A stretch of 64,000 nucleotides of DNA from Candidatus Oxydemutatoraceae bacterium (GTDB lineage: Bacteria > Pseudomonadota > Gammaproteobacteria > Poriferisulfidales > Oxydemutatoraceae). Below the pieces are notes generated by a model, which saw only the letters and a list, made by a program, of their open reading frames with translations, did not search any database and had not been told where the DNA came from. Both the position numbers and the translations under genes were made by a program. Where the stretch lies: positions 96,001 through 160,000 of the forward strand of contig CBDCOZ010000001.1 in the NCBI GenBank assembly GCA_965220085.1, in the 5' to 3' direction. Positions within the stretch are counted from its first letter, which is position 1; the number at the start of each line of letters is the position of its first letter. This document shows positions 25,045-56,233 of the stretch, piece after piece.

Positions 25045-26247
25045 ATGCTATTTGACCTGTTAACTGGAAAAGGGTTGTTGCAACCGGAGTGGTGGGCGCT
25101 TGTCCTGCTGGCTCTGGGGATGACCCACCTGACGATAATCTCCGTAACGCTTTACCTGCACCGTTGCCAAGCGCATTGCAGCCTGGCCTTGCACCCGATC
25201 GCGTCGCATCTGATGCGGCTGTGGCTGTGGCTGTCGACCGGGCTTGTGACCGCCCAGTGGGTCGCCGTGCACCGCAAGCATCACGCAAAAGTGGAAACCG
25301 CCGACGACCCGCACAGCCCCGCTATTTACGGCATTAACGAAGTGCTGTATCGCGGCGCGGAACTCTACCGCGACGAAGCCGTCAAAGAGGAGGTGGTCAA
25401 AGCCTACGGTCACCACCTGCTGCCGCGAGATTGGCTGGAAAGAAACCTATACGGCGCCCATCCCTCGTTCGGAATCGCCGCGATGTTGTTGATTCAATTC
25501 GCACTGTTCGGGTTCTTCGGGATCATGATTTGGGCCGTGCAAATGGCGTGGATACCGTTCTTTGCCGCCGGTGTCATCAACGGCTTGGGGCATTTCACGG
25601 GCTACCGCAATTTTGCGACAGATGACAATTCCACCAATATCGTCAATTTCGGAGCGCTCGTAGGCGGCGAGGAGTTGCACAACAACCACCACGCGTATCC
25701 GTCTTCGGCAAAGTTCTCCATGCGGTGGTGGGAGTTTGATATCGGTTGGTTCTACATCAAGTTGCTCAGCGCCTTCGGCTTGGCGCGCGTATTGCGCCGC
25801 GCTCCGGTGCCGAAAGATGATGCCAACGAGTTGACGGAAGTGACCCCGTCCACGCTAAAGGCTCTGATTCAAGGCCGCCCGCACGTGTTGTTGGAATATG
25901 CGACCGATGTCGTCAAACCCATTTTTAAGGCCGAACTGGCCGGCGCCGACAAATCGCGCCGCAAGTTGTTGGCCAAGGTAAAAAACGCATTGTTCCTGCA
26001 CCAGCGTCACATTACCGAGCAAGACATCAGCGCGTTAAAGGAAGCCGCCCTGAACAGTCGGCAGTTGCAAGTGATATACGAGTTCAAGCACACGCTTGAA
26101 GACCTGTTGCACAACTGCCGCGATCAGAATCAATTGCTAAAGTCTCTGCAGGATTGGTGCCGCAAGGCGGAAGAGAGCGGGATACAGGCGTTGTCGCAGT
26201 TTTCGGAGCGCATCTGCAATTATTCGTTGCATTCGCAACGCACTTGA
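25045..26247 (+). CDS. Acyl-CoA/fatty acid desaturase (DesA-like)
   Basis: His boxes HRCQAH, HRKHH, HNNHH. Confidence 0.9.
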   Translation: MLFDLLTGKGLLQPEWWALVLLALGMTHLTIISVTLYLHRCQAHCSLALHPIASHLMRLWLWLSTGLVTAQWVAVHRKHHAKVETADDPHSPAIYGINEVLYRGAELYRDEAVKEEVVKAYGHHLLPRDWLERNLYGAHPSFGIAAMLLIQFALFGFFGIMIWAVQMAWIPFFAAGVINGLGHFTGYRNFATDDNSTNIVNFGALVGGEELHNNHHAYPSSAKFSMRWWEFDIGWFYIKLLSAFGLARVLRRAPVPKDDANELTEVTPSTLKALIQGRPHVLLEYATDVVKPIFKAELAGADKSRRKLLAKVKNALFLHQRHITEQDISALKEAALNSRQLQVIYEFKHTLEDLLHNCRDQNQLLKSLQDWCRKAEESGIQALSQFSERICNYSLHSQRT

Positions 26248-26296
26248 GAAAGGCCCCGCTCGCGCGAGGCGCGCGGATGGCGCGACAGAAGGAGGG

Positions 26297-26315
26297 CGCC
26301 GATTACATCGGCGCG
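26297..26315. terminator. Hairpin between convergent desaturase and rpmG
   Basis: gcgccgat-tac-atcggcgc 8-bp stem. Confidence 0.45.
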
Positions 26316-26317
26316 CC

Positions 26318-26485
26318 TTACTTTGATATTTTGCTTTCTTTGTAGATGACGTGTTTGCGGACAACCGGATCGTACTTTTTCAATTCCAGTTTGGGCGCGT
26401 CGGCGCGCTTGCTTTTCACCGCGGTATAGTAATGACCGGTCTTGGCGCCGGAGACGAGTTTGATTTTCTCCTTCTTGCCGGCCAT
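26318..26485 (-). CDS. rpmG: 50S ribosomal protein L33
   Basis: Read manually: [27 protein letters not shown]...[21 protein letters not shown]; TAATG overlap with rpmB. Confidence 0.95.
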
Positions 26486-26721
26486 TAAACTTTCTCCCCG
26501 CGGTTGCGCAAGTCGTTTGCCACGCGCTCAATTCCTTTCTTCTCGATAATCCTAAGCCCCTTGCGCGACACCCTCAGCTTGATCCAACGGTTTTCTTTCG
26601 GATGCCAAAAGCGATGGGTGTGAAGGTTGGGCAAAAAGCGGCGGCGCGTTTTGTTATGCGCGTGCGAAACATTGTTGCCGCTCATGGGCCCCTTGTGCGT
26701 TATTTGACAAATTCTGGACAT
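26485..26721 (-). CDS. rpmB: 50S ribosomal protein L28
   Basis: [33 protein letters not shown]. Confidence 0.97.
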
Positions 26722-26756
26722 CGGTTTTTGTGGTTGCTCAATGAAACAAGGGACAG

Positions 26757-26765
26757 ATTGTACCA
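26757..26765 (-). promoter_or_regulatory. Probable extended -10 promoter of rpmB-rpmG
   Basis: TGgTACAAT about 36 nt upstream of the rpmB start. Confidence 0.55.
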
Positions 26766-26796
26766 CAAGCCGCCCCATCGCCGCAGGCAACTCGCA

Positions 26797-27318
26797 TTAC
26801 CGCAGGGGCCCTTCCAGGAAAAGGCGCAAGCGCAACAGCAGAGTCGGTTCCTGATCCGGTTCCTGCTGTTGGAGAATGCATTCCGTCGCGCCGTCCAGAT
26901 TCGCGCCTGCCGGAGACATGCCCGCCCCGCAGTTGAAAACATACGGTTCCATCGGCGGAATCCTCTCAAACGCCGCCGTGACTGCCGCGATTTCTTTCGC
27001 AGTAGTGTCCAGTGTGCCCAGCGACGGAAAGGGAATCCCGTTGTTCTTAAATGTTTGAATCAAAACGAATCCGAAGGAGGGGAAAGAGACTCTCAATTGG
27101 TCGAGGCTGGTTTGGGTGATGGCTTCGTTAATATAGTCCGGCTCGCCGTTGTATCGCCCCAAAACCGCGTCCGCATAAGCCAGCGCCACCGGGCCAACAT
27201 TGCCGCTAAGTCGGGTGTTTATCAACCGAAAGTCGTCAGTGAGCTTTTGCACCCGCGGCGGAATGACCGCATTGCCGCTCATGGGGCCTTTGTTGGTTAT
27301 TTGGCAAATTCTAGACAT
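26797..27318 (-). CDS. Chimeric ORF: L28 N-terminus, Cys-repeat fragment and LRLRLFLEGPLR tail
   Basis: [16 protein letters not shown] copy of rpmB; YVFNCGAGMSPAGANLDGATEC shared with 32629..33627. Confidence 0.65.
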   Translation of the reverse strand: MSRICQITNKGPMSGNAVIPPRVQKLTDDFRLINTRLSGNVGPVALAYADAVLGRYNGEPDYINEAITQTSLDQLRVSFPSFGFVLIQTFKNNGIPFPSLGTLDTTAKEIAAVTAAFERIPPMEPYVFNCGAGMSPAGANLDGATECILQQQEPDQEPTLLLRLRLFLEGPLR

Positions 27319-27393
27319 CGGTTTTTGTGGTTGCTCAATGAAACAAGGGACAGATTGTGCCACAAGCCGCCCCATCGCCGCAGGGGACTCGCA

Positions 27394-28275
27394 TTACCGC
27401 AGGGGCCCTTCCAGGAAAAGGCGCAAGCGCAACAGCAGGTTCTCTACGACTATGATGTTGCCGTCGGTGCATCGCGTCTCGTTAGCGGGAGTGGCATGCT
27501 GATCCATGAAAGAGGCGCAGACGCGGACGTATGTCCCCGCATGTGCCTGCCGGGGGGTAAAGGTGGCGGCGGTCGCGCCGTCGATGTCTTCGTATGCATC
27601 GGCGGCCGGGATGCCGCTGGCCGGGGCCGCGGCCGATTGCCATTGCCAGCGCAGGGTGCCGGTGTTTATGATGTTGTTGTCGGCTATAGTGCCGATGGCG
27701 GCGGTGATGGGCACATCCTTGTTCCAGGCGGTGCCTGTGTCGGCGGATACGACGGGGGCGCCGGTGGCGGCCTCTTGGGTGGGGTTGAACAGGCGGATGG
27801 TCATGGTGCCCTTTGCGTTGCCGAGGCTTCCTGCGGTGAGGACATAGAAAAAGAATGTGGCGTAGTTGCGCGTCTGTGCCTGGCCCGTGGGCGGATGGTA
27901 GCTGATGGTGGATATGGCGTTTGCGGTCACAACAACTCTGGTTCCAAAAGTCGTGCCGGTGACGGCGGAGGAGCCCGCCCGCAGAGTGCCCCTTGTGGGT
28001 TTCGATAATCCCACACTGACGAGGGCATCATCTTCCGCATCGGTGAAGCGGAAGTCGGATAGCTTGAAGTGGTACGGGGATGCGGCGGTGGCGTCTATGG
28101 ACACATCAACGCTGGACGGCTGTGCCTGAGGGTCGAAGTTTTGCGCCTGGGCCTGGCCGCAGACGGCAATCAGGGCCGGCAGAATAAGCGACCGGAGGTT
28201 GCGTCGGGTCATTGCCGAGTCAATCCCCTTGCTTACAAAACTGCGCGGGCGCGTATCAAAAGTTTGTCGTTTCAT
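27394..28275 (-). CDS. Exported Ig/cadherin-like protein with LRLRLFLEGPLR tail
   Basis: MKRQTFDT leader, AQAQ cleavage-like site, TGAPVVS...WQWQ...YVRVCASF...C module. Confidence 0.8.
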   Translation of the reverse strand: MKRQTFDTRPRSFVSKGIDSAMTRRNLRSLILPALIAVCGQAQAQNFDPQAQPSSVDVSIDATAASPYHFKLSDFRFTDAEDDALVSVGLSKPTRGTLRAGSSAVTGTTFGTRVVVTANAISTISYHPPTGQAQTRNYATFFFYVLTAGSLGNAKGTMTIRLFNPTQEAATGAPVVSADTGTAWNKDVPITAAIGTIADNNIINTGTLRWQWQSAAAPASGIPAADAYEDIDGATAATFTPRQAHAGTYVRVCASFMDQHATPANETRCTDGNIIVVENLLLRLRLFLEGPLR

Positions 28276-28318
28276 AATTCTGCTCCCGATGTGGTTTGCG
28301 CATACAGTGCGTTTCCTA

Positions 28319-30173
28319 TTAGCGCAACGGGCCTTCCAGGAAGAGGCGCAGGCGCAGTAGCAGACTTGAGCTGGCAACCGCAGGAAGGCCAAGGCTGCAT
28401 CGCTCCTCGTCTGCCGGTGTGGTGGGGTGCTGGTCCTTGAAGGAGGCGCATACGCGAATGTATTTGCCGATATGGGCGGCGCGAGGCGTGAAGCGGGAGG
28501 TGCTGCCCGTTGTCGCGGTGTCTTCTATATCGTCGTAGGCGCCGATTACAAAGGTGGGGCTGGAGGGGGCATCGGCTTCTTGCCACTTCCAACTCAGGGT
28601 GTTTGTATCAACGCCATTTTGATCGGCCACGCCATAGATGGAAGCTGTCAGCGGCGCATTGGCGGCATATGAAGCGCCCATGCCGCCCGTCACCGTGGGC
28701 GCCCCCCCGGCGACCTGTTGCGTGGTTTCTCCCAGAACCAGATTGATGGTGACAGTGCCATGCGAACTGATGGCGGTGGTATCACTCAGAGAGTAGCCGC
28801 GATAAGTGAAACTGGTAAAGCCGGGGGTGATGGAAATGGCCTCGGGGGGAGGTATCCAGAACAGATTTTGCGTAGCGTTGGCGGCAAAGTCGCTGGGGAT
28901 GACTGAGCTCGTATCCTCATTGCCGCGGAGAATGGTTCCGTTCCTCCTGACCAATCTGCCACGGTCAGGCACAGTGATTATTTCCACAATAAAATTGCTT
29001 CTGGTGACGGCGTTGCCATCCGCATCCTTGAAGGCAAAGTCGTTTAGCTGAAAGAGATAGCGATCGCTCCCAACCCCGACATCAACGCTGGTATCCTGGG
29101 CGGCGGGGATGCCGCTTGTCTGGGACGTACCGGCCACAGGAGCGCCGATGTTGCATCGCTCCTCGTCTGCCGGCGCGGGGTGCTGGTCCTTGAAGGAGGC
29201 GCAGACGCGAATGTATTTGCCGACATGGGCGGCGCGCGGCGTGAAGCCGGAGGTGAGGCCGCCCGTTGTCGCGGCGCCCGCTATATCGCTGTAGGCATCA
29301 TCACTGACTGCAGAGGAGCCGCTGGAGGGGATATCGGCCTGTTGCCACTGCCCAGGCAAGGGTGCTTGTATCAATGCCATTTCGATCCTCCACGCCATAG
29401 ATGGAAGCTGTCAGCGGCGCATTGGTGGCATATGAAGCGCCCATGCCGCCCGTCACCGTGGGCGCCCCCCCGGCGACCTGTTGCGTGGTTTCTCCCAGAA
29501 CCAGATTGATGGTGACAGTGCCATGCGAACTGATGGCGGTGGTATCACTCAGAGAGTAGCCGCGATAAGTGAAGCTGGCAAAGCCGGGGGTGATGGAAAT
29601 GGCCTCGGGGGGAGGTATCCAGAACAGATTTTGCGAAGAGTTGGCGGCAAAGTCGCCGGGGATGACTGAGCTCGTATCCTCATTGCCGCGGAGAATGGTT
29701 CCGTTCCTCCTGACCAATCTGCCACGGTCAGGCACAGTGATTATTTCCACAGCAAAATTGCTTCTGGTGACGGCGTTGCCATCCGCATCCTTGAAGGCAA
29801 AGTCGTTTAGCTGAAAGAGATAGCGATCGCTCGCAACCCCGACATCAATGCTGGTATCCTGGGCGGCGGGGATGCCGCTTGTCTGGGCCGAGGCGCAGGT
29901 CGCGCTTAATGCCAGGGACAGGGCCAGCAGGCAACGCGCGGCGGCTCCGGTCATAGCCCGGCGGGCGGTGCCCGCCACTCGCACAGACATCAGGCGCACT
30001 GCAACAGACCACAGCGACAGCATCAACCCACGCACCGCCGGGGGGCGAGACCGCTTTGCGGACTGCGGATATGCGGGTGATAAAAAACGGGTGAGAAGGC
30101 GATACGGCGAAACGCCGACAATCCTCTTATTGACAAGACTGCGCGGGCGTGTATCAAAAGTTTGTCGTTTCAT
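28319..30173 (-). pseudogene. Double-module exported protein split by a +1 frameshift (or sequencing error)
   Basis: ORFs 29301..30173 and 28319..29398 join if the extra C at about 29351-29353 is removed (ctgCCCagg here versus ctgCCagg in paralogs). Confidence 0.75.
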
Positions 30174-30215
30174 AATTCTGCTCCCGATGTGGTTGTTCAT
30201 AAAATGTGTTTCTCA

Positions 30216-31439
30216 TTACCGCAAGGGGCCTTCCAGGAAAAGGCGCAAGCGCAAGCGCACGGCAGTCAAACCTATGGTGAGGGTGGCCTCGTTGCTGTCG
30301 GCATCGCCATCGCTGAGGGTGAAGCCAAGGGTGGCGCTTACAAGGGGGGCGCTTGACGAATTGTCGTCGATTACGGTCAAGGTCAGGTCGCCGCCGCTGA
30401 AGTCGCCGTTTGTTATGGCCAGGGTCTGATCCTCCGTCACTGCTTCGTTGTTGAAGTTGAGGGTGAGGCCCGCCTGCGGGGGCAAGGCAGTGATGGTGAC
30501 CGATGCCAACTCATCGCCATCGTCATCGTCATATGCGCCTATGAAGACGCTGGCGGGTATGGTGATGGGCGCACTGTCACCAGCGGAGCGGGAGGCCTGG
30601 TATCTGGCATCGGCAGCCTTCGGCGCGAACTTCACCGTGATGGTGAAAGTGTAATCGGCAGACACGGCAGGGCTGGCAGAATCCGTCACCGTCAGAGTGT
30701 AGGTGGTGGTGGGCATGGCTTCCGTCGGGGTGCCGGAAAACAGATACCAGTAATCAAGAAGGGGATGGTTTCCACCGCTCATACCGGCGGGCAAGGCGGG
30801 TGAAATGCTGAATGTCAGGGGCCTGACGCCGCCGCCGGGGTTGATTGCATAATCAGCTGGCAAAGCCTCGCCAACTATCCAAACCTGATCAGTGCCTCCC
30901 CTATCCAGAGCGGCTTGCAAAGTGGTTAATACGCCGGAAAGACGCGGATGCCATGTGGGCCCCTGCAACACTTCAATGGTGAAGGTATCGCTCACCGTGT
31001 CGCCGTCTGCGTTGGTGGCCGTGTATGTGTAAGTGGTTTCGGCCTTGGCGGCTGTGGGGTTGCCCGCAAGCGCCCTGGTGGAGGCTGTGAATGTCAGACC
31101 CGCAGGCAGGGCGGGTGTGAGCGTATAGGTGTAGGTGCCGTCCGGCAGAGCATTGGGCAACGCGAAGTTTAGCGCGCCCCCATTTGTAGCATACAGCCGA
31201 TCGTGCAAGGCGGCATTGAAGCTGAGCGTCTGCGCGAACGCGGGGGAGGCCGCAACCGACAGCAGCAATATCGCAACCGACAGCCCGGCCACAGCTGGGC
31301 AACGCAACCGCACTGCGGTGCATGGCGAGTATATGAGGGATGGCGGCAGAAAGAGGGCGGCGAGGCGATGAAGCCAGGCGGCCGCAATCCCCTTATTTAA
31401 AAGACTGCGCAGGCGCGTATCAAAAATTTTTCGTTTCAT
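30216..31439 (-). CDS. Exported protein with He_PIG-like Ig repeats and LRLRLFLEGPLR tail
   Basis: AFAQ cleavage site; two PALPAG(L/M)...G(N/T)PT...TTYT repeats; cadherin-like D-rich module. Confidence 0.8.
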   Translation of the reverse strand: MKRKIFDTRLRSLLNKGIAAAWLHRLAALFLPPSLIYSPCTAVRLRCPAVAGLSVAILLLSVAASPAFAQTLSFNAALHDRLYATNGGALNFALPNALPDGTYTYTLTPALPAGLTFTASTRALAGNPTAAKAETTYTYTATNADGDTVSDTFTIEVLQGPTWHPRLSGVLTTLQAALDRGGTDQVWIVGEALPADYAINPGGGVRPLTFSISPALPAGMSGGNHPLLDYWYLFSGTPTEAMPTTTYTLTVTDSASPAVSADYTFTITVKFAPKAADARYQASRSAGDSAPITIPASVFIGAYDDDDGDELASVTITALPPQAGLTLNFNNEAVTEDQTLAITNGDFSGGDLTLTVIDDNSSSAPLVSATLGFTLSDGDADSNEATLTIGLTAVRLRLRLFLEGPLR

Positions 31440-31481
31440 AGTTCTACTCCCGATGTGGTTTGTATATAAAATGTGTTTCCA

Positions 31482-32585
31482 TTACCGTAGCGGGCCTTCG
31501 AGGAAAAGGCGCAGGCGCAGTAGCAGACTTGAGCCGGATGACGCACCTTCCACAGGAAGGCTAAAGCTGCATCGCTCCTCGGATACCGGCGTGGAGTGCT
31601 GGTCCTTGAAGGAGGCGCATACGCGAAGGTATTTGCCGGCATGCTCGGCGCGCGGCGTGAAGCCGGAGGTGAGGCCGCCCGTTGTCGCGGTGTCCGCTAT
31701 ATCGCTGTAGTCCTCCTCACTGACTACAGAGGTGCCGCTGGAGGGGGCAGCGGCCTCTTGCCACTGCCAGCCCAGGGTGCTTGTATCAATGCCATTTACA
31801 TCAGACACGCCATAGACGGAAGCTGTCAGCGGCGTATTGACGGCATATGAACCGCCCGTGCCGCCCGTCACCGTGGGCGCGCCCTTGGCGGCTGCCTGCG
31901 TGGTTGATGCCACCATGTTGATGGTGACGGTGCCATGCGAACTGAAGGTGCTGATATCATTGTAACTGTAGCCGCGATAAATGAAACTGGTATAGCCGGG
32001 GGCGGCAGAAATGACATCAAAGGGAGGCACCCAGTGCACATTTCCCAACCGACCGACGGGAAAGTCGGTAGGGGTGATTGAAGGCGGCTGATTACCGCTA
32101 GTGCGGAGAATGCCCCCGGCTCTTGTAACCAATACGCCACGGTCAGGCAAAGCGACCACTTCCACGACCCAATTACTTCTGGTGACGGCGTTGCCATTCG
32201 CATCCTTGAAGGCAAAGTCGTTTAACTCAAAGAGGTAGGTATCGTCCCCAATCTCGACATCAACGCTGGTATCCTGGGCGGCGGGGATGCCGCTGGTCTG
32301 GGCCGAGGCGCAGGTTGCGCCCAATGCCAGAGACAGCGCTAACAGGCAACGCATGGCGGTTCCGGATGCAACCCCGTCGATTGCTACCGCTACTCGTGCG
32401 GGCGCAAAGAGCGCCACAAACTGCCGCCACAGCGAAAGCCGCAGACCGGACACAGCCGGGCAACGCAACCGCACTGCGGCGAATGGCGGGTTGCGATGTG
32501 CGGGTGATGAAAACCGGGTGGAAACGCCCGCAATCCCCTTATTTAAAAGACTGCGCGGGCGCGTATCAAAAATTTGTCGTTTCAT
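31482..32585 (-). CDS. Exported Ig/cadherin-like protein with LRLRLFLEGPLR tail
   Basis: MKRQIFDT start after AGGAG RBS; ASAQ site; paralog of 34694..35782. Confidence 0.85.
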   Translation of the reverse strand: MKRQIFDTRPRSLLNKGIAGVSTRFSSPAHRNPPFAAVRLRCPAVSGLRLSLWRQFVALFAPARVAVAIDGVASGTAMRCLLALSLALGATCASAQTSGIPAAQDTSVDVEIGDDTYLFELNDFAFKDANGNAVTRSNWVVEVVALPDRGVLVTRAGGILRTSGNQPPSITPTDFPVGRLGNVHWVPPFDVISAAPGYTSFIYRGYSYNDISTFSSHGTVTINMVASTTQAAAKGAPTVTGGTGGSYAVNTPLTASVYGVSDVNGIDTSTLGWQWQEAAAPSSGTSVVSEEDYSDIADTATTGGLTSGFTPRAEHAGKYLRVCASFKDQHSTPVSEERCSFSLPVEGASSGSSLLLRLRLFLEGPLR

Positions 32586-32628
32586 GGCATTACTCCTATG
32601 GTGGTTTGCATATACAGTGTGTTTCCCA

Positions 32629-33627
32629 TTACCGCAACGGGCCCTCCAGGAAGAGGCGTAGCCGCAAGCGCAGGTTGGCGGCACATTCCGTCGCACCATT
32701 CAGATTCGCCCCCTGCGGAGACATGCCCGCTCCGCAATCGAAAACATACCGCACCGAATCCTCCTTTTCCGGAAAGGCGAGCTCTGCTGCGCCGAATACA
32801 TCCGCGCACTGCGGCGAACCCGAACCGAAAACGCACCATTCAAATTCCGTCTCGCCCGAAATCAGCGGGATGTTGCACCTGAAGAAGGCGGTGGCGGTGG
32901 AAATAGTCCACCCCTGATCCGCACATGTGCGAATCCCCTCCCGCTCGGCGGGGGTTAAGCCGGTCGGAAAGGCCGTGCAGTTCGGCCATGTGCCGACGTG
33001 CGAGTTCAAATCGCAGGAGCATTCGGTTGCGCCCTTCAGGTTTTGGTCCGGCGGATAGCCGCCGGGGATACTTCCGCCCTGGTCGCAATTTGCCACAAAG
33101 CGGTCCCCGCCCTCGGGTTTAACGGTGGGATGGTCCGCCGCTTTCGGAAAAACCGGCGGACTGCCGTATATATCCGTGCATAATGGCAGATTCCCTCGAA
33201 CAAAACAGAATTGGGCTCCCCTGTTGACTTCCGTCATGTCGCCGTAAAGAAAGGATGGAATTTCGCATCCTAACTCTCCGGTGAAAAAGGAAATTAAGCC
33301 GCTGACGGTGCCGTCCCCCCATCCCGCATTCCTGCAAGCATTCACAATAGCGAAGTCCGCATCGGCAAAACAACCGGTGTTAAATTCGGAACCCGGCGCT
33401 GTGGAAGAGATTCGCGTTTGCCCTTGGGGGCATGGGGTTTGCGCTGACGCGCCGTCCGCGGCGAATGCGAATGCGAGCATCATCGCCGCGCAAATTTTAA
33501 GAGGGTCAATTGACGCGAAGATTAATTCAGACATCCTGCGTGAAGACGCAACCAGCGACCGGAGGCTACGCCGAGTCATCGTCGCCCGGCAATGCGGGAG
33601 GGGAGTATCAAAAACTTGTCGTTTCAT
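32629..33627 (-). CDS. Exported cysteine-rich protein with LRLRLFLEGPLR tail
   Basis: MKRQVFDT leader, ASAQ site, two internal Cys-rich repeats ending NLxGATEC. Confidence 0.8.
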   Translation of the reverse strand: MKRQVFDTPLPHCRATMTRRSLRSLVASSRRMSELIFASIDPLKICAAMMLAFAFAADGASAQTPCPQGQTRISSTAPGSEFNTGCFADADFAIVNACRNAGWGDGTVSGLISFFTGELGCEIPSFLYGDMTEVNRGAQFCFVRGNLPLCTDIYGSPPVFPKAADHPTVKPEGGDRFVANCDQGGSIPGGYPPDQNLKGATECSCDLNSHVGTWPNCTAFPTGLTPAEREGIRTCADQGWTISTATAFFRCNIPLISGETEFEWCVFGSGSPQCADVFGAAELAFPEKEDSVRYVFDCGAGMSPQGANLNGATECAANLRLRLRLFLEGPLR

Positions 33628-33669
33628 AGTTCTACTCCCGATGTGGTTTGTATATAAAATGTGTTTCCA

Positions 33670-34650
33670 TTACCGCAACGGGCCTTCCAGGAAAAGCCGC
33701 AAGCGCAAGCGCAGACTTGAGCCGGATGTGCCGACCACAGGAAGGCCGAGGGTGCATCGCTCCTCGTCGTTCGGCGTGGAGTGCTGGTCCTTGAAGGAGG
33801 CGCATACGCGAATGTATTTGCCGGCATGGGCGGCAAGGGGCCTAAAGTTAGCATCGGTGGCATCCTCTATATCGCCGTAGACACCGACTATAGAGGTGCC
33901 GCTGGAGGGCGCAGCGGCCTGTTGCCACTGCCAGGCAAGGGTACTTGTATCAATGCCATTTTGATCCGCCACGCCGTATATGGAAGCCGTCAGCGGCGTA
34001 TTGAGGCGATATGAAATGGCCGTGCCGCCCGCCACCGTGGGCGTGCCGACGGCTTCCTGTTGTATGGGTGACCCCACCACCAGGTTGATGGTGATGATGC
34101 CGCGCGAACTGTCAATGGTGGTTGCATCAAGGGAGAAGCCCGTATAGGCGAAACTGGTGTAGTTGGGAGTGACAGAGATGGCGTCATCGGGGAGCACCCA
34201 AACGAGATTTCGTGAATCCCCGTCGGCAAAGTCGCCGGATACCAGCAAATTCAAGTCATTATCAATGCGGATAATGCTTCCGCTCCTCTTAATCAATATG
34301 CCGCGGTCAGGCAAAGTGGCCACTTCTATGGCAAAACCACCGATTGCAAGGCTGGCGCCACTCGCATCGGTGAAGGCAAAGTCGGTGGTCTTGAAGGTGT
34401 AGGCGGAGCCTCCAATCGGAACATCAACGCTGATATTCTTGGCTACGGGGACGCCGCCGGTCTGTGCCCAGGCGCAGGTTGCGCCCAATGCCCAGACACA
34501 GCAACAACAGACCGCGCACAGCCGGGTGCGCGACCGTGCTACGGCGGATGGCGGGTTGCGATGTGCGGGTGATAAAAAACGGGCGGAAATGCCGGCAATC
34601 CCCTTGTTTACAAGACTGCGCGGGCGCGTATCAAAAATTTGTCTGTTCAT
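33670..34650 (-). CDS. Exported Ig/cadherin-like protein with LRLRLFLEGPLR tail
   Basis: MNRQIFDT leader, AWAQ site; paralog of neighbours. Confidence 0.85.
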   Translation of the reverse strand: MNRQIFDTRPRSLVNKGIAGISARFLSPAHRNPPSAVARSRTRLCAVCCCCVWALGATCAWAQTGGVPVAKNISVDVPIGGSAYTFKTTDFAFTDASGASLAIGGFAIEVATLPDRGILIKRSGSIIRIDNDLNLLVSGDFADGDSRNLVWVLPDDAISVTPNYTSFAYTGFSLDATTIDSSRGIITINLVVGSPIQQEAVGTPTVAGGTAISYRLNTPLTASIYGVADQNGIDTSTLAWQWQQAAAPSSGTSIVGVYGDIEDATDANFRPLAAHAGKYIRVCASFKDQHSTPNDEERCTLGLPVVGTSGSSLRLRLRLFLEGPLR

Positions 34651-34693
34651 AGCATTACTCCTATGGTGGTTTGCATATACAGTGTGTTTCCCA

Positions 34694-35782
34694 TTACCGC
34701 AACGGGCCTTCCAGGAAGAGACGCAAGCGCAAGCGCAGACTTGAGCCGGACGACGTACCTTCCACAGGAGCGCCTATGCTGCATCGCTCCTCGTCTGCCG
34801 CCGCGGGGTGCTGGTCCTTGAAGGAGGCGCAGACGCGAATGTATTTGCCGACATGGGCGGCGCGCGGCGTGAAGCCGGAGGTGAGGCCGCCCGTTGTCGC
34901 GGCGCCCGCATCGCTGTAGGCATCATCACTGACTGCAGAGGTGCCGCTGGAGGGGATATCGGCCTGTTGCCACTGCCAGGCAAGGGTGCTTGTATCAATG
35001 CCATTTCGATCCTCCACGCCATAGATGGAAGCTGTCAGCGGCGCATTGGTGGCATATGAAGTGCCCATGCCGCCCGTCACCGTGGGCGCCCCCCCGGCGA
35101 CCTGTTGCGTGGTTTCTCCCAGAACCAGATTGATGGTGACAGTGCCATGCGAACTGATGGCGGTGGTATCACTCAGAGAGTAGCCGCGATAAGTGAAACT
35201 GGCAAAGCCGGGGGTGATGGAAATGGCCTCGGGGGGAGGTATCCAGAACAGATTTTGCGAAGAGTTGGCGCCAAAGTCGCTGGGGATGACTGAGCTCGTA
35301 TCCTCATTGCCGCGGAGAATGGTTCCGTTCCTCCTGACCAATCTGCCACGGTCAGGCACAGTGATTATTTCCACAACAAACTTGCTTCTGGTGGCGGCGT
35401 TGCCATCCGCATCCTCGAAGGCAAAGTCGTTTAGCTGAAAGAGATAGCGATCGCTCGCAACCCCGACATCAATGCTGGTATCCTGGGCGGCGGGGATGCC
35501 GCTTGTCTGGGCCGAGGCGCAGGTCGCGCCCAATGCCAGGGACAGCGCTAACAGGCAACGCGCGGCGGCTCCGGCCATAGCCCGGCGGGCGGTGTTTGCC
35601 GGGCGCACTGCAACAGACCGCAACGACAGCATCAACCCGCGCATCGCCGGGGGGCGAGACCGCTTTGCGGACTGCGGATATGCGGGTGATAAAAAACGGG
35701 TGAGAAGGCGATACGGCGAAACGCCGACAATCCCCTTATTGAGAAGACTGCGCGGGCGCGTATCAAAAGTTTGTCGTTTCAT
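34694..35782 (-). CDS. Exported Ig/cadherin-like protein with LRLRLFLEGPLR tail
   Basis: MKRQTFDT start after AGGAG RBS; nearly identical to both modules of 28319..30173. Confidence 0.85.
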   Translation of the reverse strand: MKRQTFDTRPRSLLNKGIVGVSPYRLLTRFLSPAYPQSAKRSRPPAMRGLMLSLRSVAVRPANTARRAMAGAAARCLLALSLALGATCASAQTSGIPAAQDTSIDVGVASDRYLFQLNDFAFEDADGNAATRSKFVVEIITVPDRGRLVRRNGTILRGNEDTSSVIPSDFGANSSQNLFWIPPPEAISITPGFASFTYRGYSLSDTTAISSHGTVTINLVLGETTQQVAGGAPTVTGGMGTSYATNAPLTASIYGVEDRNGIDTSTLAWQWQQADIPSSGTSAVSDDAYSDAGAATTGGLTSGFTPRAAHVGKYIRVCASFKDQHPAAADEERCSIGAPVEGTSSGSSLRLRLRLFLEGPLR

Positions 35783-35825
35783 AGCATTACTCCTATGGCG
35801 GTTTGCATATACAGTGTGTTTCCCA

Positions 35826-36990
35826 TTACCGCAACGGGCCTTCAAGGAAGAGACGCAGGCGCAAGCGCAGACTTGAGCCGGACGACGTACCTTCCACAGG
35901 AAGGCCGATGCCGCATTGCTCCTCGCCTTTCGGTGTGGAGTGCTGGTCCTTGAAGGAGGCGCATACGCGAAGGTATTTGCCGACATGCTCGGCACGAGGC
36001 GTGAAGCCGGAGGAGAGGCCGCCCGTTGTCGCGGTGCCCTGTATAGGGCTGTAGTCACCCTCACTGACTACAGAGGTGCCGCTGGAGGGGATATCGGCCT
36101 GTTCCCACTGCCAGGCAAGGGTGCTTGTATCAATGCCATTTCGATCAGCCACGCCATAGATGGAGGCTGTCAGCGGCGTATTGACGGCATATGAAGTGCC
36201 CGTGCCGCCCGTCACCGTGGGCGCACCAGTGGGGCTTAGTTGCGAGGATGCTCCCACCAGATTGATGGTGATGGTGCCATGCAAACTGTCGGTGTCGACA
36301 TCATTGAAACTGTAGCCGCGATAAGTAAAACTGGTATAGGCGGGGGTGACAGAAATGGCATCAAAGGGAGGAACCCAGAGTGGATTTGCTAAATTTTGGT
36401 CCCCAAAGTCGCCAGGGAGGAATACACTCCCCGTATGATTGCTGCGGATAACGGTAGCGTTTCTTTTAACCAATATGCCATGGGCAGGCAAAGTGACCAC
36501 TTCCACGACGAAACTATTTCTGTTGGCGGTGTTGCCATTCGCATCCTTGAAGGCAAAGTCGTTGAGCCGAAACTCGTAGGCGCTACTCCCAATCCGGACA
36601 TCAATGCTGGTATCCTGGGCGGCGGGGATGCCGCCTGTCTGGGCCCAGACGCAGGTTGCGCCTAATGCCAGAGACAGGGCCAGCAGGCAACGCGCGGCGG
36701 CTCCGGTCATAGCCCGGCGGGCGGTGTTTGCCGGGCGCACTGCAACAGACCACAGCGACAGCATCAACCCACGCACCGCCGGGGGGCGAGACCGCTTTGC
36801 GGACTGCGGATATGCGGGTGATAAAAACCGGGTGAGAAGGCGATACGGCGAAACGCCGACAGGCCCCTTGCTTGTAAGGCTAGGGGGGGGGGGGGGGTAG
36901 TATTAACATTCTCTGCTTCGCACTATATGCTTGCAAATACAACCGCTTCCGCCTGCTTGAGGGGGCGGTATTAGAAGCTTGTCGGTTCAT
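35826..36990 (-). CDS. First gene of the array, out of frame at a poly-G/C tract (putatively phase-variable)
   Basis: GAGGAG RBS plus ATG at 36990 (MNRQASNT...); C15 gives LPPPPP-stop, C14 or C17 reads into SLTSKGPVGVSPYRLLTRF as in paralogs. Confidence 0.7.
36883..36897. repeat. G15 homopolymer
   Basis: 15 consecutive G residues. Confidence 0.95.
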
Positions 36991-37037
36991 GCTATTACTC
37001 CTCATGGTTTACCTCCGGTAAATGCAATCATTATATA

Positions 37038-37137
37038 CGCAAACAGTATTTAGAGGCACAAACAACTTTGTTGTTTGTGGCTTCTTGATGAGAGCACAAA
37101 CATATTTAATTGTTTGTGGTTCCTCAAATTGTTTGCG
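37038..37137. promoter_or_regulatory. Palindromic operator-like sites upstream of the array
   Basis: CACAAACA-N7-TGTTTGTG (37057-37079), CACAAACA-N8-TGTTTGTG (37095-37118), outer CGCAAACA/TGTTTGCG. Confidence 0.55.
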
Positions 37138-37356
37138 TTCCATAAACTGTTTCATGTCGGTACTCCTAGCACCGTATGCCGTAGTCTGCTACAAAGCGCA
37201 AGTCACTTGCAAGTCAAACCGCCTGAAATTCTATTAAAAGCCGCACTATACCATAAAGCAAGATATTTGCAAGCGCCTGTGGGATGCCGTGAAATATGGA
37301 GCATATGGGGGCAAGTATTGTGCGGTGGCATGGGATAAAACCGCCTGAGACCGGCT

Positions 37357-37749
37357 TTATTCGGCATTGCGTTTTCCAAAGCCGGCGCTGACCCATAGCA
37401 GGGAGAGCCAGCCGCCCATCAGTGCGATGCCGCCCAGCGGGGTGATGGCGGTTACCGCCGCTATTCCGGTTGAGACAGAAACATAGATGCTGAATGAAAA
37501 CAGGATCGCGCCGGCGCAAAATATCGCGCCCGCTACGGAGAGCCTTTTCACCACCGCAGCGGGCATGTCGGTAAAACGCATCAGCGCCAGTCCGATGACC
37601 AGCGCCGCGTGGACGATGCCGTAGCGGGTGGCCACCTCCAAGCTGCCCGCTTGCTTGGCGGACAGTTCCAGAAAATGGCTGCCGAGCGCGTCATAGATGT
37701 ATGATGCCAAGACATATTGGACACTTGGGCAAATATTGTGCGGTGTCAT
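37357..37749 (-). CDS. DUF423 family membrane protein, N-terminus atypical
   Basis: ALGSH, TRYGIVH, LFSFSIY, ITPLGG...GW motifs. Confidence 0.75.
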   Translation of the reverse strand: MTPHNICPSVQYVLASYIYDALGSHFLELSAKQAGSLEVATRYGIVHAALVIGLALMRFTDMPAAVVKRLSVAGAIFCAGAILFSFSIYVSVSTGIAAVTAITPLGGIALMGGWLSLLWVSAGFGKRNAE

Positions 37750-38015
37750 GGCGCTTGAGGCTTCGGCCGTAGTGTGGTCGTTGGGTGTTAAACCATAGCA
37801 GATAGTCTATCCGCTAATCGTTGAATGTCCGCATATTCGGTCTGCAACAAGCCCGCTTCAAATGCCACAGACTCTCTCTGAGAAGGCGGTGAAAGCGTTC
37901 GTAGTAAGAATAGCCCGCCTATAAAGTTTGAGAATTTGGGAGACTTTGATACTTATCGGAAAAGTCTTGAGTGTCTTCACAAGCGCCCAGAAAATAGCAT
38001 TCCCAGAGAACAGCA

Positions 38016-38933
38016 CTAATTAAAAATCTCGTTGAAGATCTGAGTTACATCTTTATCAAGGTTGTCGTCGCTATAGTCGGCATGCGGAATGCTTAAATTC
38101 TCCAACACTTTCTTAAAGCGTCTAAAGCCGGGCTCGCTTCTTAATTCTACCCACTCAACTTCCCGACTATCCAGTTGCTTCTTATTTGTATCAGAAAGTT
38201 TATCGGCAATAAAAACTTGGCTATCTCTCGCTATTACAGCATCCGCACTCTCGGGATTGCCTTTCCCCATAAGTTTGACTTCGCATTTATATTCTTTTTT
38301 GCCATGTCGCAAATAGAAATCTGCCTCTCTTACAATGGTTTCATCGGAGGAACTCTTTTTGGATATGGCGGCGTAATTTTCTTCGGGGACGTGATAAAGT
38401 TTGCACAGGGTCTGCATGAGAGGTTTCTCAACTCTTTTCCCGGCCGTGCTCCACAGACCTCCTCTTAAAGCCGCTCGTTTAACCGCCAGTGAGTTAATCA
38501 CTATCAGGCTTTCGCTTACATTTAAGTCTATTGAAACGCTTTTTAGTTTAATGGTGAGTGTTAAATCAACTTCATTTTCAGTCTCAACCAATTCTTTTAT
38601 TGCGTTGTAAAGGGTTTCATAATGATTATTTGAGGCATCTATAACAATTTCTTTTCTGGTTGAGTTGAACATGTTCCTGATGGTTTTCATATTTAGCCCC
38701 GAATGGATGGCAATTTCTTCTTTGGGGAAGCTTGAATCAAGCAAAAAAGCTTTTTTGCACCAATCAACACCTATTGCTTGGTTGGCAAGTTTGGCGTCCA
38801 CAATTTTTTTGAAAAAGTCTATTGCGCATTGAAGGAATTTCGCATTGATGCGCGCGACAACTTCTATCCTATAGTCATCTCCGTTCAAAAGTCTCTTGAT
38901 AATATTTTGTATTGCTTGTTCTGTTAGTGTCAT
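38016..38933 (-). CDS. Type II restriction endonuclease, CfrBI-like
   Basis: LRGGLWSTAGKRVEKPLM, READF...CEVKLMGKGNPESAD (PD-(D/E)xK-like); coupled to a methyltransferase; low GC. Confidence 0.8.
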   Translation of the reverse strand: MTLTEQAIQNIIKRLLNGDDYRIEVVARINAKFLQCAIDFFKKIVDAKLANQAIGVDWCKKAFLLDSSFPKEEIAIHSGLNMKTIRNMFNSTRKEIVIDASNNHYETLYNAIKELVETENEVDLTLTIKLKSVSIDLNVSESLIVINSLAVKRAALRGGLWSTAGKRVEKPLMQTLCKLYHVPEENYAAISKKSSSDETIVREADFYLRHGKKEYKCEVKLMGKGNPESADAVIARDSQVFIADKLSDTNKKQLDSREVEWVELRSEPGFRRFKKVLENLSIPHADYSDDNLDKDVTQIFNEIFN

Positions 38934-40312
38934 TTTCCAATCGTTTTCTTAAATTCGGACAAAGATAAAAAACATGTTTCTCGCTTATCAAACAAACTAT
39001 GTTTCTTAAAATGCTTTTTCATATAAGCAAAATATTTTGGTTCTTGTTCGGCTAAGAAGAAATACCTGTTCATGGTTCGGGCTGCTCGGCCAAAGGTTCC
39101 GCTGCCCGCAAAAGGATCAAATACCAGGTCTCCCTTGTAGCTATAGTACTTGATAACCTTTTCACACAGGTCTGCCGGGAATACCGCAGAATGGACTTTA
39201 TTGAATGTCGGGTCTATGTGCCATGCGTTTGTTGACTCAAACTCGCCTTCAACCTTGCTTTCTTGCATCGTTTCTCTGTCGTACTGTCTGATATTCCAAT
39301 CGAGGAGTTTGGATGTCTGCTTGCGATACACCATGAGATATTCTGTAACAGTATTAGGCTTGTATCCGAGCGGTTTTCTGTGCTGCATGAAACCTCCCAC
39401 CCGATTTTTGACACTGGCTTCTGGCTTTATCCACACGATGTCGTCAATGAACTCCCAATCCATCTGAACCAGCAGATGGTGGAGATCAAAAGGAATCGGA
39501 TAACGTTTTGAAGAGTGTTGTCGGCTTATTCTTGGGATTATGATTGGTGAAGTATTTACTATGAGAAAACGCCCTTCTTTGGTCTTGTCAGAAGTCAACT
39601 GAAACACTTCTTTTAGAAAGTCCAAGTATGCTTGGTAGCTTGGATAAATTGAGTAGTCGCGCGCGTTGTAATACGGCGGCGATGTAAATGTCAGATGAAA
39701 GCTATCATCGGGGACGAGTTTAAGAACCTCTCTGACGTCATCATGTACCGCGACATTTTTGAGGAAGTCATAGGATTCCGCATGAGGCTGTCCTGATTCT
39801 TTTTCGCGCGCATTTGAAAAGTACTCCTTGCGAATGACTTTTGTCACCATTTCATTTTCATGTTTGATCAGAGATTTGAGTTTTTTGTCAACGTCTGGTC
39901 GCCCTTTGAATACCAACAAGGCTCTGATGGCTTGGCAGATTATTTTGGGGTCTTTGTCATCAAGAATTTTGAAGAGAATCTGCCGAGTGTTCTCAGAGCG
40001 TTGTCGGCCTATTGACGAAACCGCTTCGCGTCTAATATCTGTCACATTGTCTTGCAAAGCGGTTTTCTCCAAGTATGGAATAAATGCCTGGTTCTTTAAT
40101 TTGCCTATGGTTTTAACCGCGCCAAGGCGAACATGCTTGCTTTTGTGTCCCAAAAGGTCGGGCAACCAACTGCCGTCAAAATCTTCGGGCAAATGGCCTA
40201 AGTTCTCAAGTATATGGACTATTGCGCCGCTCTCATTTTGAGATTTTACCAATTTAGCAATCTCTCCATTGCCCGCTCTTTTAAGTTCGTTTATGTGATG
40301 TTTTGAAATCAT
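38930..40312 (-). CDS. DNA methyltransferase (N4-cytosine-like, beta order) with N-terminal HEAT-like repeats
   Basis: TSPPYY then DPFAGSGT; VRLGAVKTIG / IRREAVSSIG / IICQAIRAL repeats. Confidence 0.88.
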   Translation of the reverse strand: MISKHHINELKRAGNGEIAKLVKSQNESGAIVHILENLGHLPEDFDGSWLPDLLGHKSKHVRLGAVKTIGKLKNQAFIPYLEKTALQDNVTDIRREAVSSIGRQRSENTRQILFKILDDKDPKIICQAIRALLVFKGRPDVDKKLKSLIKHENEMVTKVIRKEYFSNAREKESGQPHAESYDFLKNVAVHDDVREVLKLVPDDSFHLTFTSPPYYNARDYSIYPSYQAYLDFLKEVFQLTSDKTKEGRFLIVNTSPIIIPRISRQHSSKRYPIPFDLHHLLVQMDWEFIDDIVWIKPEASVKNRVGGFMQHRKPLGYKPNTVTEYLMVYRKQTSKLLDWNIRQYDRETMQESKVEGEFESTNAWHIDPTFNKVHSAVFPADLCEKVIKYYSYKGDLVFDPFAGSGTFGRAARTMNRYFFLAEQEPKYFAYMKKHFKKHSLFDKRETCFLSLSEFKKTIGK

Positions 40313-40763
40313 ATTAAAAGCGCCCGATATGCGCGGAGCAAAGTTCTTTTAACTTATGCGCCGATACTTGCAATGTAATTTTGTGATGCAACCATAATTA
40401 CATTAAACCATAAAATTGATTTTAGCAGAGGATGGTTAAAACGAGCGAGCGTATATATCGCGCTTTTTGAACTGTTCATCGGGATTGCGTAATTTTGCCC
40501 ATTGCCATTTTTAGTTATCGGCAGAAATCTATCTTCTGTTTGATGCCATGACATATCGGGCACATGGGGGCAAATGTTGTGTGTGTCATGAGCGCTTGAA
40601 GCTTCGGCCTATAGCGTGCTCCGTTATCCATAGCGATGCGCGGGATGCGCCGCCTTGAAACCTTGCCAAGACGGGGTTTGCGTTGCGGGGTGTTCCGCCG
40701 ATATGCCGATTGGGCTTATAATCCGAACTTCTGTTTCTTTTGCGCACTTGATAAGCTTCGGCA

Positions 40764-41120
40764 ATGGACAAAATTTTCATAAAAAGTCTGGTAGTAGAGA
40801 CCGCCATCGGCGTGTTTGAGTGGGAGAAGCATGTGCCGCAACGTCTGTGTCTTGATTTGGAGATCGGCGCCGATATCGCAGCGGCCGCTGCGAGCGATCA
40901 ATTGCAGGATACGATCGATTACAAAGCGGTGGCCAAACGGGCGCAGGCTTTTATGCAAGGGGAGCGGTTTGATTTGGTCGAGACCCTCGCCCACAGACTG
41001 GCCGATACGTTGGCGGCGGAGTTTGGCATGGCATACATTCGCCTGACGTTGAGCAAACCCGGCGCGGTACGCGGCTCGGATGCGGTGGGCATCGTCATCG
41101 AGCGCGGCAAGCGCGATTGA
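40764..41120 (+). CDS. folB: Dihydroneopterin aldolase
   Basis: IGVFEWEK, TIDY, LVETLA, KPGA. Confidence 0.95.
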   Translation: MDKIFIKSLVVETAIGVFEWEKHVPQRLCLDLEIGADIAAAAASDQLQDTIDYKAVAKRAQAFMQGERFDLVETLAHRLADTLAAEFGMAYIRLTLSKPGAVRGSDAVGIVIERGKRD

Positions 41121-54746: not shown

Positions 54747-54900
54747 ATAATAAATATATCATAGAAAGGGCAAAACAATGGGAATTATGTATTTAACTTG
54801 ACAGAGGCAGATTATGTCAGGCAGGAAACTTGACAAAGATACCAGTACGCTATATACCTATATCTTAATTCGTTGTTAAACCACTTTGGGGATTAGGACT

Positions 54901-55821: not shown

Positions 55822-55972
55822 AAACCACCCACAGCATAACTACAGTTTCGGTGAAGGTAGATAATTCAAAAAGGGTTCCTTTGAAATAGATTTATCGGTG
55901 GTGCTATCCTTCCTTTGAGTATGAAATAGACAATGTAGAGCATGACACATCTAATCAGTCAGATATGCAAAT

Positions 55973-56131
55973 ATGAAACAGAAAGACTTAGACAGAGCGG
56001 CTACGGCACTACTTAAAGCAGGGAAACCGCCGAAGGATAAAGATTGCCCGATACCGACAAAAGCAGACTTAAACCGTAAGTTTGTCATGCGGGTAGACCG
56101 TCAAGGCAAACCCACAATTATTGAGAAATAA
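55973..56131 (+). CDS. Small basic passenger ORF inside the IS (52 aa)
   Basis: MKQKDLDRAATALLKAGKPP...IIEK; stops 2 bp before the right TIR. Confidence 0.45.
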   Translation: MKQKDLDRAATALLKAGKPPKDKDCPIPTKADLNRKFVMRVDRQGKPTIIEK

Positions 56132-56233
56132 TACCTCTGTCAAGTTAAATACATAATTCCCAAAACAATATGCTTGGGGAATTCTGTTATACTATCCCCC
56201 GACTTTTTGAATTTTGATACGGAGGTATTTGTT

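Follow-up and report, generated by a model that had tools for sequence, protein, structure and literature searches.

A tandem array of tail-tagged immunoglobulin-like protein genes beside rpmB in a Candidatus Oxydemutatoraceae bacterium: a candidate phase-variable operon

What purpose is served by a row of genes that all begin alike and all end alike, and that encode unrelated proteins in between? The question is raised by a gene array in the genome of a Candidatus Oxydemutatoraceae bacterium (assembly GCA_965220085.1). The array (26797-36990) lies on the minus strand of a 64,000-nucleotide (nt) stretch of contig CBDCOZ010000001.1 (C1:96001-160000), hereafter called the window, to whose numbering all positions without a contig prefix refer. 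It comprises eight genes (G1 to G8) and one gene fragment (G9), which are followed by rpmB and rpmG when the minus strand is read 5' to 3' from 36990 down to 26485; seven near-identical junctions join G1 through G8. A preliminary description of this DNA had taken the junctions for recombinogenic elements of an integrase-free cassette array, by which whole adhesin cassettes are duplicated, deleted and swapped. We confirmed the observation underlying this proposal, and its interpretation proved only partly right. The locus is probably a phase-variable, operon-like tandem array of tagged, Sec-exported immunoglobulin (Ig)-like surface or secreted proteins, one of about 35 arrays in this genome. 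Each member of the protein family is composed of three modules, namely a leader, a variable and fast-evolving body, and the invariant C-terminal tail RLRLRLFLEGPLR.

We scanned the entire genome (2,492,841 nt on 3 contigs, 55-56% GC) in all six reading frames. Among 219 FLEG[PS]L motifs, 214 are directly followed by arginine and a stop codon, and RLRLRLFLEGPLR-stop forms the C-terminal end of 214 open reading frames (ORFs) genome-wide as a 14-residue tag. Together these ORFs occupy 480,357 nt (19.3% of the genome); their median length is 397 amino acids and their maximum 15,193, and 27 of them are mini-ORFs of fewer than 100 amino acids. Across the 214 copies, the first and second codon positions of the tail carry 2.0 bits of information and the third 0.6-1.5 bits, while the reading frames end in TAG (135), TAA (51), or TGA (28). 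The flanks hold less than 0.5 bits, except for about 6 nt after the stop; background is reached about 25 nt away on the upstream side and about 10 nt away on the downstream side. The peptide is invariant from two residues before the phenylalanine to the C-terminus, apart from the preceding L/I/V position and a single Pro-to-Ser exchange; positions further upstream vary somewhat. Because the tail is invariant at the protein level in 214 copies in which synonymous change is free, it is, by this pattern of conservation, a peptide under purifying selection and not a DNA repeat. A DNA repeat or mobile element as the source of the tail was ruled out by the 3-base periodicity and by the use of all three stop codons.

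Directly after the stop, the hexamer (C/T)GCGAG is found in many of the 214 genes, with 0.6-1.0 bit per position; no other common conserved element was detected downstream of the tail. Two regions of contig C3 (C3:501980-524849 and C3:908934-911021) contain runs of mini-ORFs of 42 or 14 amino acids, each ended by the tail and spaced by 27 or 123 nt, which look like tandem duplications of gene ends inside other arrays.

The tail most likely represents a sorting or docking tag. Three secreted proteins carry the motif RLRLRVFLEGPLR at the mature N-terminus, just past the signal peptide and followed by GGSS (C1:36355-38001, C1:23865-25292, and C3:1171407-1173515; loci L045-L047), so that the tag would act independently of its position. 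One of these proteins is trypsin-like, as judged from His and Ser motifs read by eye, and the other two are PPC-domain repeat proteins. No Pfam model matched the trypsin-like protein. We considered it as a protease that processes the tail and rejected this candidate since its homologues, present in 11 of 19 genomes of the family, include genera without the tail and hence do not co-occur with it. Neither leader nor tail matched a known family in Pfam or NCBIfam.

At the other end of the proteins, the leader consists of a Shine-Dalgarno site, an ATG, and about seven codons reading M-(K/N)-(R/K/Q)-(Q/K)-x-F-(N/D)-T, placed upstream of an ordinary signal peptide. In many members of the family this leader runs into a homopolymeric tract. 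The coding strands contain 85 poly-C tracts of at least 11 C (range 11-28, median 19), and a tail-bearing ORF lies downstream of 81 of them; elsewhere in the genome there is only a handful of shorter G/C runs. For 55 of the 85 tracts, an ATG preceded by an AGGAG-like site is found 22-28 nt upstream, and the intervening peptide, M-(N/K)-(R/Q/K)-(Q/K)-x-(F/L/Y)-N-T, is written with synonymous variants (AAT/AAC, AAA/AAG, CGA/AGA). In-frame copies continue as ...NT-PPPPP and then into a canonical signal peptide. Assigning each tract a frame state with a model that uses the nearest Shine-Dalgarno site and ATG, we obtained 24 ON and 61 OFF states; tract lengths are evenly spread over the three residue classes modulo 3 (26/27/32). 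Closely related copies were compared as well: of ten paralogue pairs whose upstream 60 nt differ at no more than 3 positions, seven have tracts of unequal length, and two of these seven have 0 upstream mismatches (17 vs. 19 C and 13 vs. 19 C), although assembly errors in homopolymers may contribute.

The rpmB-side array contains one such tract, in its first gene, which the preliminary description had overlooked. Its features are as follows, in the order of transcription and all on the minus strand.

37245-37272, minus strand: sigma-70-like promoter match (TTGCAA-16-TATAGT with TG), the sole match upstream of the array and a consensus match only
35826-36990, minus strand: G1, the first gene, with Shine-Dalgarno site, ATG at 36990, poly-C leader, signal peptide, two-domain Ig-like body and tail; the ATG is out of frame with the body
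36883-36897, minus strand: poly-C tract of 15 nt (C on the coding strand), 93 nt past the ATG of G1, a candidate slipped-strand switch
35783-35825, minus strand: spacer J1, type A, 43 nt, contains AGGAG
34694-35782, minus strand: G2, type-I cassette of 362 amino acids, with leader, signal peptide, two Ig-like domains and tail
34651-34693, minus strand: spacer J2, type A
33670-34650, minus strand: G3, type-I cassette of 326 amino acids
33628-33669, minus strand: spacer J3, type B, 42 nt
32629-33627, minus strand: G4, with a cysteine-rich body unrelated to type I; its first 8 leader codons and its tail are as in the others
32586-32628, minus strand: spacer J4, type A
31482-32585, minus strand: G5, type-I cassette of 367 amino acids
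31440-31481, minus strand: spacer J5, type B, identical to J3
30216-31439, minus strand: G6, with a He_PIG Ig-domain body (PF05345, E 6.8e-15) between the common leader and tail
30174-30215, minus strand: spacer J6, a relative of type B
28319-30173, minus strand: G7, two type-I cassettes fused in frame (fusion at about 29122-29124; 1-nt insertion at about 29351)
28276-28318, minus strand: spacer J7, hybrid
27394-28275, minus strand: G8, a diverged cassette of type-I architecture, 293 amino acids
27272-27438, minus strand: direct repeat R1 (period 597, about 95% identity with R2), made up of the tail, TAA, 75 nt from upstream of rpmB and the first 47 nt of that gene
26797-27318, minus strand: G9, the start of rpmB (L28 residues 1-19) fused in frame to a G4-type 3' body fragment and tail, without a signal peptide
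26675-26841, minus strand: direct repeat R2, which runs into the intact rpmB
26485-26721, minus strand: rpmB (ribosomal protein L28), then rpmG, directly downstream of the array

Each junction consists of the tail codons, TAA, a spacer of 42-43 nt, and the leader; all nine frames end in LRLRLFLEGPLR-TAA. That these junctions are real is beyond chance: a 39-nt leader pattern has 6 matches with at most 3 mismatches in the 64-kb window (at 28237, 30135, 31401, 32547, 34612, and 35744) and 0 in 100 shuffles, and the seventh leader, that of G4 (ATG at 33627), has kept only about its first 30 nt. The two spacer types of about 42 nt that had been noted before were recovered as well, with J1, J2, and J4 representing type A and J3 and J5 type B, as was the hybrid spacer J7, whose 5' half is A-like and whose 3' 17 nt are identical to those of the B-like J6. 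Three unrelated kinds of body stand between the common leader and tail: the two-domain type I (G1, G2, G3, G5, G7, and, in diverged form, G8), the cysteine-rich kind (G4 and the G9 fragment), and the He_PIG Ig type (G6). G2 and G4 have only MKRQxFDT and FLEGPLR in common, and G2 and G6, besides the tail, only a leader of 67 amino acids. As had also been stated, rpmB adjoins the array.

The leader MKRQxF(D/N)T of this array is the tract-less form of the genome-wide module that elsewhere leads into poly-C, and its internal copies (MKRQxFDT-RPRS...) have a short, interrupted GC-rich stretch in place of the tract. In G1, the frame of the ATG is open through the C15 tract, the leader ORF stops right after it, and the body is offset by 1; G1 as assembled therefore reads OFF, and one C fewer or two C more would join the ATG frame to the body. 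One mark of a contingency locus, a long uninterrupted repeat in the 5' coding region of a surface-protein gene, is present at this locus and 85-fold in the genome. When tail genes of at least 100 amino acids are counted, the tract is found at the first gene of 24 of 35 arrays, in 18 of 83 internal genes, and in 39 of 69 singletons. Tight arrays, including that beside rpmB, follow the pattern of a tract in the first gene and none in the genes behind it.

The bodies are predicted to be exported Ig-like proteins in which the sequence changes fast. An AlphaFold model of G2 that drew on 33 paralogues leaves both ends of the protein unstructured, the leader (residues 1-67) as well as the tail (345-362; predicted local distance difference test (pLDDT) of its blocks 54, 50, and 44). 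Between them stand two confident beta domains (block pLDDT 72-95), and the chain ends 14 residues past the last Ig-like domain. Foldseek placed Siglec-10, CD2, intimin D00-D0, and protocadherins among the top matches of this model; it matched tandem Ig/FN3/cadherin pairs with probabilities of 0.84-1.00 (most above 0.95) and with TM-scores that are low (0.15-0.26 on the query). According to the model, the type-I body is a tandem Ig-like pair of beta-sandwich domains. The combination of a signal peptide with tandem beta-sandwich domains is that of Ig-like/He_PIG surface proteins, and a crude signal-peptide test was positive in 137 of the 181 tail ORFs of at least 150 amino acids. No classical (type Va) autotransporter was found in the genome, in which PF03797 has no match at E<=0.001; two secretins are present. 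Between pairs of type-I bodies, the synonymous divergence (dS) is 0.01-0.52 and the ratio of nonsynonymous to synonymous divergence (dN/dS) 0.6-2.3; given this low dS and high dN/dS, the paralogues are young and fast-changing in protein. The tail changes little while the bodies change fast.

A family of such young copies could have expanded passively in a duplication-prone genome, recent tandem duplications now drifting toward pseudogenes. The tracts would then switch nothing and be either noise, from mutation or from assembly, or mere proline linkers. We think this explanation unlikely. A dN/dS of about 1 in several pairs, the frameshift in G7, the signal-less fusion fragment G9, the 61 of 85 tracts that are out of frame, and the 27 tail ORFs below 100 amino acids would all fit it. 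It does not account for a tail whose last ten residues are constant or almost constant in all 214 copies, with the three residues before them less strictly kept, nor for the fact that 81 of 85 tracts sit at the same place of the same module, on the coding strand and preferentially at array heads. Proline linkers would moreover stay in frame, which the tracts do not, their length modulo 3 being uniform, and some of the dN/dS values exceed 1 (1.77 and 1.26).

The seams between the cassettes have recombined. G2 and G7a differ at 14 of 757 sites in their bodies and at 16 of 42 in the spacers that precede them (P=6.6e-11), G1 and G7a at 10 of 216 sites in the post-tract leader and at 148 of 757 in the body (P=9e-9), and G7a and G8 at 14 of 99 junction sites and 312 of 690 body sites. 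The mosaic identities expected among aligned paralogues from the preliminary description were hence borne out. In G7, the tail, spacer, and leader between two cassettes were deleted at the fusion (about 29122-29124); the 1-nt insertion at about 29351 is absent from contigs of the short-read runs X2 and X3, which may stem from paralogues. G8 and G9 have tails with 100% identity, and it is with these tails that the two copies of the 167-nt direct repeat begin (period 597, about 95% identity; 27438-27272 and 26841-26675). The repeat continues across the region before rpmB as far as codon 16 of that gene, and for this reason G9 joins the start of rpmB in frame to the 3' fragment of a G4-type body. 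A tandem duplication across a junction followed by a tail-to-tail deletion would yield this R1-G9-R2 structure. Short-read contigs from three runs of one study are broken at the junctions, most joints having sides of less than 30 nt. A contig from run X2 that skips 597 nt (26716 to 27314) is ambiguous because a contig of the skipped part is present at equal depth.

Could the junction of roughly 120 bp then be a dedicated recombination substrate, integron-like without an integrase, that serves to shuffle, excise, and amplify whole cassettes? The mosaic identities of junctions and bodies, the hybrid spacer J7, the identical G8 and G9 tails at the head of the 167-nt repeat, and spacers that are far more alike than the synonymous sites of the bodies (1 of 43 sites between J1 and J2, at a G2-G3 dS of 0.50) speak for this proposal. 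Like the cassettes of an integron, those of the array are co-oriented, promoterless-looking, unrelated in content, and separated by a repeated junction. In contrast to an integron, there is no adjacent IntI with attI and Pc and no attC hairpin at the cassette boundary; the spacers measure only 42-43 nt, and the junction is made of coding sequence and a ribosome-binding site. Folded as single-stranded DNA, four junctions were no better than their shuffles (z -0.34 to +0.11), and Rfam returned nothing at E<=0.1 over 26000-37600. A Pfam scan of the 15 flanking ORFs found no integrase or recombinase, and a search of the whole genome for orphan recombinases turned up only 3 tyrosine recombinases (PF00589), all on contig C3 and none on the contig of the array, and no resolvase; RecA and MutS are encoded. 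The breakpoints of the G7 fusion also lie outside the junction. Above all, the genome search showed that the junction is not an element specific to this array: the tail stands on 214 ORFs, among them 69 singletons of at least 100 amino acids, with varying synonymous sites, and the Shine-Dalgarno site and leader occur family-wide, with the array's leader being the tract-less form of the SD-ATG-poly-C module. The homology at the junctions would hence be a by-product of functional modules, and we regard a dedicated recombination substrate as quite improbable. On this genome-wide distribution, each junction would consist of two abutting functional modules, both of them shared across the family. 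What remains of the former proposal is recombination at or near the junctions without a site-specific recombinase; the mosaics show that homologous exchange occurs there, but incidentally and without a mechanism devoted to it.

A transcriptional switch strikes us as very doubtful. In this reading, poly-C would act in a promoter or 5' untranslated region, by way of spacing or attenuation, and the short ORF before the tract would have no role of its own. In its favor, 30 of 85 tracts lack an ATG 22-28 nt upstream, and for some classes of tract the nearest ATG is 91-139 nt away (a looser search found an open ATG within 140 nt of all 85 tracts, 12 of them without a Shine-Dalgarno-like site). Against it, in the other 55 an SD-like site, an ATG, and a conserved peptide with synonymous variation run straight into the tract, in-frame copies continue into a canonical signal peptide, and the G1 frame is open from the ATG at 36990 through the tract.

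The phase-variable operon that we favor would operate in the following way. Slipped-strand mispairing would change the length of the tract in the head gene, and on this length it would depend whether translation from the start codon enters the signal peptide and body in the right frame. An untranslated head gene would lower the expression of the downstream cassettes by polarity, the internal cassettes having leaders in which a stable, interrupted sequence replaces the tract. The products may leave the periplasm via a secretin-type pathway, for which the two secretins and the missing autotransporter barrel leave room, and the tail would address or dock them. Meanwhile, the homology at the junctions allows RecA-type and illegitimate recombination to duplicate, delete, fuse, and re-pair cassettes. 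A consensus scan found no sigma-70 promoters for the individual cassettes in the spacers, and its three matches across the region are not above shuffles (mean 5.0).

Several observations weigh against this reading. As to polarity, each internal gene has its own Shine-Dalgarno site, and an internal promoter may exist in the spacers, though the consensus scan detected none there. No variation of tract length within the population was seen in the short-read contigs, which break at junctions; the sole indel near the G1 tract, at 36909 in one contig, lies outside it. Homopolymer lengths in long-read assemblies can be wrong, and the split into ON and OFF frames as well as the OFF state of G1 may therefore be partly an artifact. 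Values of dN/dS near 1, the G7 frameshift, and the many OFF frames are also compatible with decay of part of the family. Finally, we found neither a partner of the tail nor machinery that serves it; the trypsin-like candidate occurs in the family regardless of the tail.

How far do the family and its tag extend beyond this genome? A search with G2 yielded 56 matches in its own genome and one weak match among 40 relatives, a 3,324-amino-acid open frame ending in ...RVFLEGPLQ-stop. Among 5.8 billion clustered proteins, G2 had 51 matches, 49 of which lie on contigs of this very genome; the other two include P0004, which is 81% identical and fused to He_PIG repeats. No G2 relatives were found in genome and metagenome contig collections. 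The pattern FLEGPLx-stop, with 214 occurrences here, recurs throughout one sister genus, whose 5 genomes have 11-34 copies each. A genome of another genus has 4 copies and a genome of a second family has one, whereas the remaining 45 genomes of the order yielded none. In a sample of 401 genomes of the class, six other genomes had one match each, and a reversed control gave single matches in 5 genomes; in wider genome contigs, the matches listed were mostly single chance matches. Judged by these searches, the family of 214 reading frames is lineage-specific and the tag confined to part of one family. The leader end followed by C11 occurs 46 times here and 0-2 times in 18 genomes of the family. 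Two relatives from other genera carry one or two long poly-C tracts (L041, genome G003, C1:543675; L044, genome G001, C1:359208), and the tract of genome G003 comes after ATG-CTT-TCT-AAT-AC and before a signal-peptide-like stretch. This suggests that the leader design predates its expansion in the present genome.

In the surroundings of the array, the earlier statement that no integrase, reverse transcriptase, or transposase lies next to it holds for integrase and reverse transcriptase within about 10 kb on each side; a fragment of an ISL3 transposase was found about 240 nt beyond rpmB-rpmG. It forms the C-terminal part (residues 284-393, E 1.7e-9 to the ISL3 DDE transposase) of a fatty-acid desaturase ORF on the plus strand (25045-26247), to which the remnant of a transposase seems to have been fused. 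On the upstream side, a DUF423 gene separates the array from a nearby low-GC island (39-47% GC over 38001-41000). The genes of the island, on the minus strand (38016-40312), encode an N4/N6 DNA methylase with HEAT repeats at its N-terminus and a restriction endonuclease of the CfrBI type (PF09516, E 2.3e-27). A second low-GC stretch (44-49% GC at 54001-57000, vs. about 58-60% around it) is found further along the window. Toward its end, the plus strand carries another tail-bearing gene of 1,356 amino acids (59817-63887; C1:155817-159887), followed by a paralogue of 2,037 amino acids that extends beyond the window.

The array combines traits of several known systems. Neisseria pilC1/pilC2, with poly-G in the signal-peptide coding region, and opa, with CTCTT repeats in the leader, are contingency loci subject to translational phase variation. 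Here too, a simple repeat that is presumably hypermutable separates the start codon of a surface-protein gene from its export signal, the reading frame follows from the length of the repeat, and the genome has many such loci that are independent of one another. Unlike those genes, the present candidate system belongs to a sponge-symbiont family and comprises, within 2.5 Mb, 85 tracts of 11-28 C, with one conserved leader module, tracts that often head multi-gene arrays, and products with a common C-terminal tag. The variable lipoprotein loci of Mycoplasma, i.e., vlp (M. hyorhinis), vsp (M. bovis), vpma (M. agalactiae), and vsa (M. pulmonis), likewise consist of tandem surface-protein genes with near-identical 5' regions (leader or signal peptide) and divergent bodies; they undergo on/off variation, as the array may, and form chimeras via recombination between conserved ends. 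Their products, however, are lipoproteins of wall-less bacteria and are switched by promoter poly-A or a site-specific recombinase, whereas the array has no recombinase, a coding poly-C tract, and an added conserved C-terminal tag. Dozens to hundreds of otherwise unrelated secreted proteins with a signal peptide and one short C-terminal signature are also the mark of the C-terminal sorting-tag families PEP-CTERM/exosortase, GlyGly-CTERM/rhombosortase, LPXTG/sortase, and the C-terminal domain of the type IX secretion system (T9SS). Here the tag differs in being about 12-14 residues long, amphipathic, and arginine-rich, without a transmembrane helix or basic tail, in ending at its final Arg, and in that it can also sit at the mature N-terminus. 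A tripartite C-terminal sorting signal was not found, as the tail ends in ...FLEGPLR-stop, has no hydrophobic helix, and matches no sorting domain in Pfam or NCBIfam; no search was aimed at a sortase-like enzyme. A literature search returned no paper on FLEGPL or on homopolymeric phase variation in sponge symbionts; its matches on contingency loci and sponges were irrelevant as judged from their listing alone.

For genome annotation, these data mean that "conserved recombinogenic junctions" can be two abutting functional modules, and that a frameshift in the first gene of such an array is no ground for annotating a pseudogene before the tract has been inspected. The tail is a candidate for a new sorting or docking signal, and its very large list of natural substrates should make the receptor experimentally findable. 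More tentatively, and as a possibility that we would not yet call probable, the genome may encode a combinatorial surface coat: about 85 independent poly-C switches, each gating a gene or operon of fast-evolving Ig-like proteins. All of these proteins would carry a new arginine/leucine tag of 14 residues, able to work at the N- or the C-terminus, that directs them to one receptor or assembly. If true, this would be the largest phase-variable repertoire per megabase known, in a family of sponge symbionts and not of pathogens, and the array junctions would be the seams where new cassettes are copied, fused, and re-paired. The family is placed under the Gammaproteobacteria by NCBI, and Oxydemutator is listed among the symbionts of the sponge Stylissa in one paper (PMC11685487). 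Phase-variable surface repertoires are textbook devices of pathogens. The investment of about a fifth of the DNA in one tagged family, together with some 85 tracts, suggests that bet-hedging occurs in beneficial or commensal animal symbioses too, with host phagocytosis or phages as examples of its possible targets.

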